Source: an uncultured Verrucomicrobiae bacterium (GTDB lineage: Bacteria; Verrucomicrobiota; Verrucomicrobiia; Chthoniobacterales; JAFAMB01). From it: DNA of 64,000 nt. Under the pieces are notes generated by a model that was not told the origin of the DNA, made no database searches, and worked only from the letters and a program-made list of their open reading frames with translations. Where the stretch lies: NCBI GenBank assembly GCA_963813025.1, contig CAWEXO010000013.1, forward strand, positions 288,001-352,000, read 5' to 3'. Each line of letters begins with the position of its first letter. The stretch's first letter is position 1. This document shows, one piece after another, positions 36,261 to 56,392 of the stretch. Position numbers and translations under genes: made by a program.

Positions 36261-36365
36261 CGCTTGCTCCTGCGTGGTCAGATACCAGGAACATACCGCT
36301 CTGAGCTCCTTCTACGACACCACTTACGCACCCGGAACGGATATCAAGGGCGAAGCCCTTGGCTC

Positions 36366-37757
36366 CTAAGAAACTAAATCCGTGGCTGGGTCTAGAGGCG
36401 TGAGTTGGAGTCCGAATTCTTTGGCTCGTCGGCTGAGATCGTGAAGTAGGCGGTCTTTGTATTTTTTCTCGTAGTAGAGTTGCCCTTGCTCGACATAGGC
36501 AGCTCCGAACTTGAGCATGCGATAGAACAAGCGTGCCAGTTTATGAGCTCCGGCGTTGATGGCGGTGGGTGCCCCCAATCGGGCTTTGATGCGGCGGATA
36601 AAAGCGCCGATGGCCGTCTTACTTTGCATGGCTCCTTGGGCCGCCAGCCGGAACATGGCCGCCGCGCGATTCTTGGTTTTTCTGGGGCTGGAACTGAGCA
36701 GTTTGCCGCCGCTGATGCGATTGTCCGGACAGAGTTTAAGCCAGGAGCAAAAGTGTTTTTCGCTTTTCCAACAGGTCATGTCTAAACCCGTTTCCGAAAT
36801 GATGACTTCCACCGCCAAGGTGCTCAAGCCAGGCAACTGACTCAGATCGACACCACAAACGCTGGCCAGATGCGCTCGGCGCTGCAGGGCTAGGCGAACT
36901 TGGGCCGACCGTGCTTGGGCCGCCCCGCTTTGCTCGAGGGCTTGCTCCAAATCTAGTTTAGTGTCGAATTGCTCAAGTTGTTGCTCAATCTTGCTTTCGC
37001 AGGCGGTGATCTTGAGCTGGTAGGTGTCATAGAGTTCCAGGGCCGTTTGCAAGGCGAAGAGATGCTCGGCTCGGTAATCTCCCTGTAAGGCTTTGACGAT
37101 CTGATCAGTGGATGCTTTCACTTGGGGGTGTTTCATCTGGGCAAGCTTGAGCGGATTGCGTTCTCCGGCCAAAATCGCCCGAATCATCGCCATGCCACTA
37201 TAACCGGTGATGTCGCTCAACACGCGGTGCACTTGGATATTCATTTCGGTTAAGGCCTTCTGCATGCGTAACACATGGCTGCTGCAGTCCTTAACCAAGG
37301 TGTCGCGCAGGCGCAGGAAGCTGCGCAAGACGCAGACCTCGTCCTTGGGTCGGAACGAGCCGTTTAAAAGACCAAAGGTGTGGAGTTGTTGAAGCCATTG
37401 GCAGTCCGAGACGTCGCTTTTGCGTCCAGGCAGATTCTTGACATGAGCTGCGTTGACCAATTTTACCTCCAACCCTCTCTGCTCCAGAATCTGGAACACC
37501 GGTATCCAATAAACCCCCGTTGATTCCATCACTACGGTCTCAATGTGGTGTTCGCTCAGCCAGTCAGCCATCCGCTGCAGATCGCTCGTAAAAGGGCCAA
37601 ACTTGCGCACCGTTTCTGAGCCGCGGTCTTCGGGAATGGCCACCAGGTGAAAATTCGCCCCGATATCGATTCCTGCGGCCTTGAGATTGATCCGTTCCAG
37701 AACACTCCGGTGAGTTTTTGATTTGTTCTTTCGCTTGGTCGTGGTTTTCTTTGCCAT
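36366..37757 (-). CDS. IS110 family transposase (DEDD recombinase)
   Basis: AGIDIG, VMESTGVYW, RKSDVSD and L.P....SGGK catalytic Ser motif. Confidence 0.95.
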   Translation of the reverse strand: MAKKTTTKRKNKSKTHRSVLERINLKAAGIDIGANFHLVAIPEDRGSETVRKFGPFTSDLQRMADWLSEHHIETVVMESTGVYWIPVFQILEQRGLEVKLVNAAHVKNLPGRKSDVSDCQWLQQLHTFGLLNGSFRPKDEVCVLRSFLRLRDTLVKDCSSHVLRMQKALTEMNIQVHRVLSDITGYSGMAMIRAILAGERNPLKLAQMKHPQVKASTDQIVKALQGDYRAEHLFALQTALELYDTYQLKITACESKIEQQLEQFDTKLDLEQALEQSGAAQARSAQVRLALQRRAHLASVCGVDLSQLPGLSTLAVEVIISETGLDMTCWKSEKHFCSWLKLCPDNRISGGKLLSSSPRKTKNRAAAMFRLAAQGAMQSKTAIGAFIRRIKARLGAPTAINAGAHKLARLFYRMLKFGAAYVEQGQLYYEKKYKDRLLHDLSRRAKEFGLQLTPLDPATDLVS

Positions 37758-38015
37758 ACCTCTCTTGGGTTAGATGTTGTTCTTGCTTTCACACTGCAGC
37801 GCATCGGCCCGAGTTGGTAGATAGAGAGAAATCTCCTAAACAGGATAGCTCCAGATCGGCAAACAACCCGATCTGGAGCTTCGCTAATGCAACAACCAAA
37901 ACGCTCGGAACCAAACTAGCTATCGGGCATAAAGCTCCAATGCCACACCGGTCTTAACTGCCGACCCACTGCTGCCTACTTTCTACGTCGAGATGCCCAA
38001 GGCAATCAATCCAGT
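37758..38015 (-). ncRNA. Candidate IS110 bridge RNA region
   Basis: About 260 nt non-coding upstream of the transposase; 13-bp perfect stem at 37847-37880; a 7-nt match (ctcctaa, 37833-37839) to the element's own opposite end. Confidence 0.55.
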
Positions 38016-38264
38016 GTTTCTTGCCGCAAAAAGAACGCGCAGAGTTCTGGGGAACTAGTTAGTTAGCGTACAATTTTTTCCGTTTGGTGTGGTCACCCCA
38101 ACATGGGCGGCACTAGGGATTACCACACTAGCCGGAGCGCAGCTGATACTCAGCTCTTAAAGCTGGAGCCTTCTGGGCGATTTCCAGCGTTTTATCGGCG
38201 GTTTTACGCTGTTTTTCAGGGCGACCGGTACCTGGTGGATTCCGCTGTTAGTCATCGTAGACCG

Positions 38265-54079: not shown

Positions 54080-54330
54080 GTTGTCGAGAAGAAATTCATG
54101 GCTGGCTTCATCAATATTATAGCCTCCTTCTGTAATCGTGAGTGAAACGATCCGAGTATCGGACTTGCAAGTCGCTCTAACACAACCCGCGGGTTTGCCG
54201 GGGCATGCAGGTACTCAATCATGGCCCCGACTACCCTGGTGGACATGGACAGGTCGGGCTTTAATTCCGTGACTGTGTAAAGATTATCCTGAATTCGGTA
54301 AGCGGCGGCCTTTTCCCGAGCTGCACTACC
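54080..54330 (-). pseudogene. Mannitol dehydrogenase family fragment
   Basis: QDNLYTV...VVGAMIEYLHAP..P..VLERLASP, then a shifted frame gives TRIVSLTITEGGYN. Confidence 0.75.
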
Positions 54331-54770
54331 GGAACGGATAACGTGCAAGTGGCCAAGCGCTTGGGTACGAGCGAACAGACAGTCACGTTGTGGCGGGGTC
54401 GTTTCCGACAAGAAGGCATAGGAGGTTTGGCGGACTTGGCCCGCAGTGGGCGCCCAGAGCGCATTAAGCCGGCAAGGGCCGAATCTTGAGTGAAGCCGTC
54501 AGGCCGCCGGCGACCTTGGGACGGTGGAGTACCCGGTCGATGGCCAGGCATCTGGGAGTATCCAAGGCAACGGTTCAGCGCCTGTGGTCCACCAACGACA
54601 TTAGGCCACACCGGCCGTAAACGTATAATCCAGTTAGCAAAGCGAATGGCTCGGGGATTCAAAAACTTCGTCTACTTCAGAACCGCCGCCTACCACGGGC
54701 CGGTAAACTTACCTTGGCCGTTCCAACCATCACCTAACCTCAAAACCACCCACACAAAACAGCGAAGGGA
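54330..54770 (+). mobile_element. IS630 transposase N-terminal remnant joined to an ISL3 3' remnant
   Basis: TVTLWRGRF...GLADLARSGRP and WSTRSMARHLGVSKATVQRLW; then IQLAKRMARGFKNF and IR-like cccacacaaaacagcgaagg. Confidence 0.78.
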
Positions 54771-55105
54771 TTTTTCTCACCGCCCCGCGGCGATATAGGG
54801 GGCGCCAGGGCGGGGTTAACTTCGCCTCCTACCTAATACCTTTTTTACGAACCCATAAAAGCTATAAGATGGGAACCCATACCACCTAACATAAATAATC
54901 GCGTACTTGGCGTGAAAGAGGTAGAGATCGTGCTCAGGTACAGAAAACGGGCAAAGGAAAGTGGAATTGGCGTGGTGTTCATTACCCACGATGTCCATCA
55001 CGCTTTCCTGATTGGCGACACGTGGGCGCGCTGACCCTTTATGCACCGCGCGGCAGTGATTCCCAGTTCCTTGCACAAGTCACGAATCTGCAAGGGGTTG
55101 TGAAC

Positions 55106-55232
55106 GCTCCTAAGAAACTGGATAAGGCCGGTCTAATAAAGTTAGCTCTTCCTAAGAGCCAAACAGCCCCCAATCGAGAACTCGGATGGTTTCTTGCCGC
55201 AACAAGAACCCGCAGCGGTTCTGGGGAACTAG
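55106..55232 (-). mobile_element. Non-autonomous mini-element carrying both ends of the IS110 at 36362-38058
   Basis: gctcctaagaaact is identical to 36362-36375; 55189-55232 is near-identical to 38016-38058. Confidence 0.7.
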
Positions 55233-56392
55233 CTAGTCATGTGTCCTCGAAAGAATATTGCTTATCTTATTATAAATTGCTTAACTCGACAGTATGTCGA
55301 GAGTCGCTGCTGGGATCGAATTAACTGAACCCGAGAGGAACGAGCTGGAACGGCGCGTGCGTGCCCACAGCGCCCCGTATCGTGATCGGCAACGAGCCAA
55401 AATGATTCTGTTGGCGAAGACTTGGAGAATCAGCAGATTGCCATCAAATTGAAGTTGAGTCGAATGGCCGTAGGTAAATGGCGTGAGCGCTTTAGTCTGG
55501 AGGGAATAGCAGGATTGGCCGATGCACCTGGACGAGGACGGCTAAGCAACTTGGAACCAGAACAGCTCGAGGCAGTCTTGGGCCGGGTAGTGCAACCCCC
55601 TGCTCATCTTCGGCGCTGGAGTTGCCGCACTATGGCTCGCGAATCGGGGTTGAGTAAGTCGACGGTGCAGAAGCTGTGGGCTAGCAATGATCTTAAGCCT
55701 CATCTAAGCCGGACTTTCAAGCTTTCCACCGACCCGGAATTCAAGGCCAAATTCTGGGATATCGTCGGATTATATCTCCCTCCACCCGATCAAGCCCTGG
55801 TGTTGTGTTGTGATGAGAAGAGCCAGATCCAGGCCCTGAGCCGTTCTCAGCCTGGTCTGCCGCTTAAAGCCGGTCACATTCAAACTCGCACCCATGAATA
55901 TTACCGCAACGGGACGATCACGCTTTTTGCCGCGCTCGATTACCTCCAAGGCAAGATCATTGCTCGTACCGATCGGCGTCATACTCACCGAGAGTGGCTG
56001 CGCTTTCTCAGGCAGATCGATGAGCAGACGCCGGCAAAGGTGGATTTACATCTCATTGTCGACAACTACTCCACCCACAAACATCCCAAGGTTAAAGCCT
56101 GGCTAGCCCGCCATCGACGCTTTCACATGCATTTTACTCCGACCAGCGCTTCCTGGCTTAACCTGGTGGAGCGATTCTTCCGGGATCTTACTCAGCAAGC
56201 CATCGTGACCGGAAGCTTTGAGAGCGTTAAGGTCTTGGTCGAGGCGATCGAAGCCTACCTTGCTCACCATAATCTGCGAGCCAAGCGCTACACGTGGCGG
56301 GCGGACGGCGAAGAAGTCCTGCGCAAGATCAACAGAGCGCGGGCAACTGCAACTGATGGATAAGATATGTTATTTCGAGGACAGCACACTAG
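55233..56392 (+). mobile_element. IS630 family element; transposase 55294-56363 with a frameshift near 55418
   Basis: CTAG at both ends; imperfect IR around tgtcctcgaaa...cttatc; CCDEKSQIQAL, VDNYSTH, SASWLNLVERFF. Confidence 0.92.

Follow-up and report, generated by a model that had tools for sequence, protein, structure and literature searches.

The DNA stretch analyzed in the present work (the window) comprises 64,000 nucleotides of the genome of an uncultured Verrucomicrobiae bacterium, here named G000, and harbors a full-length IS110 element together with a short element devoid of genes (the mini-element, or mini); their features are collected in Table 1. All the sequences are quoted on the transposase strand (core AG) unless the + strand is stated, and the terms used for ends and core follow the accessible part of PMC11208160.

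The initial annotation had recognized an element of about 130 bp at 55106..55232. The unit is real, but its bounds are now placed at 55107-55230, including both CT cores (55107-55108 and 55229-55230 on the + strand, i.e., AG on the transposase strand), with a unit length of 122 bp. Of the 14 bp claimed to be identical to the transposase-stop end, 13 (CTCCTAAGAAACT, 55107-55119) are identical, the fourteenth being a chance G of the flank. The chance expectation for this 13-mer alone is about 0.09 genome-wide, and all 18 genome matches to its first 12 bases correspond to IS110 or mini ends. Furthermore, this right end includes a 7-bp subterminal repeat, AAGAAAC (55113-55119 region), that pairs with 55189-55195. 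The near-identity of about 44 bp to the far end of the IS110 was confirmed, since 42 bp at 55189-55230 match that of the IS110 at 36363-38056 in 38 out of 42 positions with one gap, and the hairpin reported there is the AGAAC-N8-GTTCT palindrome lying within the same stretch; the match of this left end to a second IS110 variant of the same genome (variant B, contig C9) is 40/42. The mini possesses no terminal inverted repeats, its ends being asymmetric and sharing the 7-bp subterminal repeat only.

Table 1. Location of the mini-element, of its neighbors and of the full-length IS110 within the window.
Feature	Position	Strand	Remarks
Mini-element, core to core	55107..55230	-	122-bp unit with one core duplicated; lacks ORF and bridge RNA
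Right (B) end of mini	55107..55119	-	Left-donor arm TTAGG and core AG; matches left donor guide TTTAGGAG of the bridge RNA
Interior box 2, TTAG-N6-CTnA	55123..55136	-	CTGA in most relatives, CTTA in window mini
Interior box 1, TTAG-N6-CTnA	55142..55155	-	Overlaps hairpin 55145-55159
Variable interior of mini	55156..55188		About 47% mean identity among relatives, indels; missing in 90-bp type
Left (A) end of mini	55189..55230	-	Core AG, right-donor arm TT, AGAAC-N8-GTTCT palindrome, AAGAAAC repeat
Target left arm	55231..55236	-	AGCTAG on +; CTAGCT before AG core on transposase strand; matches left target guide ATAGCTAG
Left-end remnant, second distant IS110 subfamily (~47% aa)	55041..55106	-	Same target; mini lies between remnant and target arm
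IS630-family element	55236..56389 (right end approximate)	+	Inserted at TA of target CTAG; separate neighbor
Full-length IS110, likely helper	36363..38056	-	1694 bp core to core; 13 genome copies
IS110 recombinase, 463 aa	36366..37757	-	DEDD_Tnp_IS110 and Transposase_20; D31, E78, D115, D118, S349 present
Candidate bridge RNA	37770..37960 (bounds approximate)	-	Guides match target and donor
Left target guide ATAGCTAG	37916-37923	-	Matches CTAGCT-AG (target arm and core)
Left donor guide TTTAGGAG	37833-37840	-	Matches TTAGG-AG (donor arm and core)
Right donor guide AACT	near 37812-37815	-	Matches AG-TT (right donor arm)

The recombinase of the full-length IS110 matches PF01548 (E 6e-20) and PF02371 (E 7e-7) and shares a weak similarity with the IS621 structure (E 4e-5), in which D31, E78, and S349 align with IS621 residues, D115 and D118 being assigned by motif alone. 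We take the IS621 residues aligned to D31, E78, and S349 to be catalytic. The region upstream of the recombinase gene is a candidate bridge RNA with guides fitting both target and donor, an assignment suggested by these matches and by the joint change of guides and sites in two other lineages (see below). Two loci (L098 and L110) harbor the left end and the whole bridge RNA region with no transposase match behind, and might represent an RNA-only derivative.

The G000 genome harbors 13 full-length IS110 copies, 12 of which are near-identical (some of them interrupted) and one at 87.6%, with at least eight intact helper ORFs at 99-100% identity. The 42-bp stretch shared with the mini lies inside the cores of all 13 copies, and it is absent from an empty allele of the window IS110 (36363) site, found on contig C9 near 193,600 and containing one core. 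Hence, 38028-38056 is an end of the insertion sequence and not a target, and the alternative put forward in the initial annotation, that 38028-38058 might be a repeated target, has to be discarded. The window IS110 site (36300-36362) lies within a repeated sequence that also occurs at other places (C14 near 332,940 and C9 near 193,600 in G000, and loci L040, L082, and L132) and, place by place, is empty or contains a full IS, a mini, or a stack, thus representing a recurrent landing site.

The proposed search with both ends was carried out by BLAST and motif scans over the whole assembly and retrieved, compared to the 13 full-length copies, five mini units at three loci, three of the units being identical. 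The single-copy state that the initial annotation associated with a deletion scar was not what we found, as copies lie at several separate sites. The same unit as the window mini forms an identical head-to-tail dimer at C14:104508 and C14:104630, and two degenerate units (C14:36986 and C14:37101, of 115 and 120 bp, respectively) precede a full IS in a mini-mini-IS110 stack spanning C14:36986-38915. The latter has an off-consensus target flank and many indels, and may therefore be decayed or carry assembly errors. The head-to-tail junctions in the mini arrays coincide with the predicted circle junction sequence, which is compatible with a circle and no proof of one. Variant B, to which the mini left end is closer, is present as a single copy with a broken ORF, so that the original helper of the mini may have been another element.

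Concerning the surroundings of the window mini, the remnant at 55041-55106 matches L159, a relative sharing 47% of its amino acids, at 87.5% over 56 bp. In 12 of the 14 distinct junctions listed, the left end of this second subfamily directly follows a target-type arm, the exceptions being the window and one non-target flank; hence, the mini appears to have entered between the target arm and the older second-subfamily element. This sister subfamily has its own minis of 129-130 bp with other interiors (L176 and L182), a similar size in an independent family. The IS630-family element at 55236-56389 shares about 82% with two other copies in the genome. Moreover, 54316-54617 is a fragment similar to IS630-type copies on contigs C13, C5, and C12, and the end of a short reading frame at 54930-55015, which by its motif looks like the C-terminal part of an ABC ATP-binding protein, is probably a remnant. 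An orthologous empty allele of the mini site was not found among 42 family genomes or in the soil-run contigs, where the comparison covered 4 of 22 listed runs; a joint between 54720 and 55879 in a contig of run X1 was rejected as such an allele, since 54316-54617 itself resembles IS630-type copies.

The distribution of the mini was then evaluated in other genomes and in metagenomes. Using the mini as a query, matches were retrieved in 11 of 43 family genomes, G000 included, with E up to 0.01 and two of the matches weak. The left-end pattern identified 16 stretches in genome contigs, 15 of them titled Verrucomicrobiota or Verrucomicrobiae, and 82 matches (80 listed) in metagenomes; no match was found in viral contigs. 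The remaining genome stretch (L044, Martelella) resembles a chance match, and so does L062, one of the metagenome matches. The 81 metagenome end matches comprise 39 long minis, 4 short minis, 9 accompanied by a transposase, and 29 that are unclassifiable (14 near a contig end and 15 with no right end found); the ratios of minis to full elements are not abundances, full IS copies being lost from short-read assemblies. Related minis are common in soil metagenomes, and the host is presumably a verrucomicrobium of soil. Including the window copy, 32 distinct long sequences and six of 57-59 bp were collected, related minis and lineages not being independent samples. Natural lengths are 57-59, 90, and 120-126 bp, which give no constant phase, and the idea that circle lengths correspond to whole helical turns was dropped. 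A contig from soil run X4 (record 26) harbors the whole mini with seven differences and one gap between other flanks, and one 125-bp relative is identical at seven distinct flank pairs. The six sequences of 57-59 bp occur at six sites with no identical copies between sites; they consist of the two ends only (L038, L040, L042, L045, L050, and L081), and in some of them the subterminal repeat pair shows paired changes.

Regarding the target, at least five of the six bases of CTAGCT precede the element at 33 of 34 non-array mini sites and at 20 of 20 non-array full-element sites; these counts derive from 40 distinct mini sites, six of which (all from L040-L051) were set aside because their flank is or resembles an element end, and from 22 full-element sites, two of which were set aside, two of the 13 G000 copies (the C14 stack and a damaged-end copy) being left out. 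The bases of the right target arm are almost random, apart from a slight preference for C at the first one. Head-to-head insertions on both strands of the palindromic target CTAGCTAG were also observed (L059, L063, L024, and L069).

Ends and flanks change together with the guides. In the helper of loci L040-L051 the guides are ATTAGGAG for the target and TTTAAGAG for the donor, and all six mini sites of these loci end in TTAAGAG and follow TTAGG (four) or TTAAG (two), none of them following CTAGCT; outside L040-L051 the end is TTAGGAG at 34 of 34 mini sites. Against this trend, a truncated helper of the ATTAGGAG/TTTAAGAG variant (L079) lies at an ordinary target. Moreover, 90-bp minis with another left end are preceded by TTAGTT in three cases out of three, and a helper sharing 62% of its amino acids, whose left end is similar to that of the 90-bp minis, has the guide ATAGTTAG, which fits TTAGTT. 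This co-variation amounts to two or three events in few and related lineages, with no statistic attached. The variant sharing 79% of its amino acids (L040-L051, L132, and L079) has a target guide reading the ancestral donor end, its own donor end and donor guide being changed by one base, and it builds mini-IS-IS-mini stacks. A distant IS110 relative (46-58% aa) starts exactly at the right-end core of two different minis (L128:1442-1960 and L143); it has TTTAGGAG at the target-guide position and appears to target the ends of the mini family.

On the whole, the mini is very probably a gene-less passenger riding on the bridge-recombinase IS110 resident in the genome. The non-autonomous IS110 derivative, lacking both transposase and bridge RNA, that had been proposed initially is thus supported by the multiple copies, the exact core-to-core ends, the target arm, and the co-variation of ends and guides. 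Since the helper guide spells the mini target arm and the mini ends and flanks change where the guides change, the mini was most likely mobilized in trans by a full-length IS110 of the same genome, and it has probably been mobile recently.

In principle, we can depict the following scenario. The recombinase and the bridge RNA from a full copy would recognize the mini ends in trans, and these ends would be joined into a 122-nt donor circle with one core, probably by copy-out, by analogy with IS621 and CazIS110; the circle would then insert at CTAGCT-AG. The occupied site would keep the left arm and the core, and would be open to a second insertion because the right target arm is barely specified. 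Dimers and stacks might arise through repeated insertion, half-match insertion at element ends, or composite circles. Within the accessible parts of the sources, single-strand copy-out and one-arm matches are reported for IS621 (10.64898/2026.08.31.748434), copy-out for CazIS110 (10.1101/2025.10.25.684509), and a structural description of excision is given in PMC13626964; forms as short as 58 nt would be feasible if a single strand were released, and the stacks would be accounted for by one-arm matches.

The closest system is MITEPpu9 (the ssr9 module), mobilized with ISPpu9 in Pseudomonas putida KT2440, for which a circle has been shown and whose interior is a small RNA gene (PMC12288879, accessible part). 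According to the same source, the two share an IS110-group helper, a non-coding end upstream of the gene, an AG core at both ends, a long left end with a palindrome (43 bp in MITEPpu9 and 42 here), a short right end (16 vs. 13-14 bp), and the occurrence of free copies, tandems, and composites of IS and mini in which the mini lies downstream of the transposase gene. They differ in that MITEPpu9, as far as that text goes, is known from three strains and targets REP sequences, whereas window-type minis occur in many lineages of at least two genera and target the rare word CTAGCTAG; furthermore, the interior contains, instead of a small RNA gene, a pair of conserved DNA palindromes in which no RNA structure was seen. 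The likeness is one of architecture, and the mini described here is known from contigs.

With IS621, in the accessible parts of PMC11208160, PMC13626964, and 10.64898/2026.08.31.748434, the system shares the DEDD and Tnp domains, a two-base core, a left non-coding end whose guides match target and donor, and a short right donor guide; the helper, however, has 463 residues compared to 328 of the IS621 chain, the core is AG instead of CT, the right target arm is nearly unspecified, and the mini, unlike IS621, encodes neither recombinase nor bridge RNA. Tandem non-coding units beside IS110 transposases, with one-sided, left-donor-only boundaries and local growth, are described in the available portion of 10.64898/2026.08.14.744561; both sets form repeated non-coding stacks next to IS110 with donor-matching boundaries, but the minis analyzed here have the two donor arms, and solitary copies lie at distant sites as well.

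Classical MITEs have terminal inverted repeats and target duplications. The mini is, like them, short, gene-less, multi-copy, and helper-dependent (PMC10969869, accessible part), and unlike them it has no terminal inverted repeats but a 7-bp asymmetric subterminal repeat and a shared 2-bp core. The accessible parts of PMC10969869 and 10.64898/2026.10.21.760802 contain nothing further on IS110 minis. In the largely open literature searched, with ISfinder and the end-box tables of PMC12288879 outside its coverage, MITEPpu9 was the sole IS110 mini described, and the same search retrieved nothing on interior boxes of this kind or on IS110 guides reading sister ends.

The roughly 70 bp between the ends had been described as unrelated sequence; they are indeed dissimilar to the full IS, but conservation is evident throughout the mini family. 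An origin of the interior from the resident IS was rejected, its best local match there being 11 bp. The alignment of 29 of the 32 long minis, chosen by their ends only and excluding three deletion forms, revealed a mean identity of 93% in the left end, 47% in the first half of the interior, 65% in the second half, and 94% in the last 20 bp. Four islands, TTAG (-49), CTnA (-39), TTAG (-30), and CTGA (-20), spaced by 10, 9, and 10 bp, are 98% conserved compared to 56% in the N6 spacers, and perfect boxes at a fixed distance from the core were found in 24 of 29 minis. On a tree of 27 distinct tails, island sites underwent 0-1 changes and spacers 4-8, and gamma rates fitted better than uniform ones (lnL -484.5 vs. 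-509.7).

The double box is absent from the full IS110; an origin of the interior from the right end of some related full-length IS110 was also rejected, no double box being seen in 18 relative transposase loci (right ends inspected by eye, several of them partial) or in 13 full-element right-end rows. A profile search of the genome with the interior matched only the five minis, and TTAG-Nk-CTnA shows no genome-wide excess at k=6 (130 occurrences vs. 96-153 for k=3-11), which led us to reject a host regulon site. The interior pattern matched 6 of 43 family genomes and exposed minis with two other left ends, so that the boxes are kept in minis with three different left ends, one of which is missing the variable half. 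In 401 genomes drawn from the phylum, there was no exact match, G000 itself needing one mismatch; a single match in a viral contig, inside an AT-rich repeat, was judged to be chance. Where the donor end became TTAAG, the boxes stayed TTAG (6/6); as they did not change along with the donor guide, the bridge RNA probably does not read them. A stop-codon cassette was rejected too, TTAG being almost never swapped for another stop and indels being absent. The boxes are not universally needed, since the 57-59-bp minis lack them and the interiors of the ~130-bp minis in the sister subfamily are different.

According to these data, the interior double box might be a protein-binding DNA module, held in phase with the donor core, which would help tiny elements to circularize or re-insert; among the readings of the boxes we rank this one first, at slightly less than even chances. 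A wider proposal, held more tentatively, is that the minis own a cis-acting mobilization module consisting of the two TTAG-N6-CTnA palindromes and that other IS110 guides have been re-programmed to the right ends of the minis and their sisters. If so, a host or element protein would be recruited, circles of 90-125 bp would form or mature efficiently, the boxes would be kept across minis riding different recombinase subtypes, and minis and sister elements would act as landing pads.

It is unlikely, though worth weighing, that the boxes are instead a priming signal for second-strand synthesis on a single-stranded circle of a mobile mini, a 122-nt circle with no promoter of its own otherwise lacking a second-strand start. 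Single-stranded circles are reported for IS621 in the accessible part of 10.64898/2026.08.31.748434; the islands on the transposase strand hold TTA, CTA or CTT, TTA, and CTG, and, in the part of PMC2978363 available, CTA, TTA, and CTG are triplets at which DnaG of Firmicutes and Proteobacteria starts. The lack of identical copies between sites among the box-less 57-59-bp minis would fit as well. However, triplets are too short to tell, those of DnaG come from other phyla and may not be those of the host, and the strict spacing and palindromic symmetry better fit a duplex-binding dimer.

We consider it rather improbable that the interior of the mini is a small RNA or a promoter regulating the helper, like ssr9 in MITEPpu9. 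That precedent (accessible part of PMC12288879) and the sequence-specific conservation agree with it, but consensus folding of the 29 minis gave no structure conserved on either strand, none of the eight possible box pairs showed a compensatory change (one pair is T-T in 18 of 29), no sigma-70-type promoter was found within 55000-55350, and no Rfam family matched the mini at gathering score (one weak match, 21 vs. 100 bits). Interior RNA hairpins were consequently rejected for lack of covariation; the previously noted hairpin at 55145-55159 is present, but it is subfamily-specific and not a conserved feature. Equally improbable is a mobile mini whose interior is filler inherited from a founder, with islands slow by chance or by mutation bias: all long minis may have one origin and the islands were picked after seeing the alignment, yet the numbers of changes in spacers and islands, the two symmetric boxes with equal N6 spacers, the persistence of the module with three left ends, and the TTAG kept beside TTAAG ends stand against it. 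Finally, an immobile deletion scar, a host repeat serving as target, or an assembly artefact can hardly be entertained, in spite of an incomplete assembly (80%) and of one C14 stack with indels, given that the same unit recurs at loci unrelated to one another, that its interior has no relation to the resident IS, that 39 of 81 metagenome end matches are whole long minis, and that flanks follow the guides.

The basic element, a gene-less passenger of IS110, belongs to a type of selfish DNA already known; the searchable literature contains neither the conserved interior module nor the sister elements targeting ends. Minimal donors for a bridge recombinase are naturally available in this family (57-59, 90, and 120-126 bp), which also allows a mutational test of whether an accessory DNA signal is required by a tiny cargo; this is relevant to circle formation and to donor design in bridge editing. 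Moreover, it records a natural re-programming of guides, with matching changes in passenger ends and landing sites. As the ends and landing sites of gene-less passengers change with the guides, there is good genomic evidence for an action of bridge RNAs in trans and for the ability of IS110 variants to target the ends of one another.
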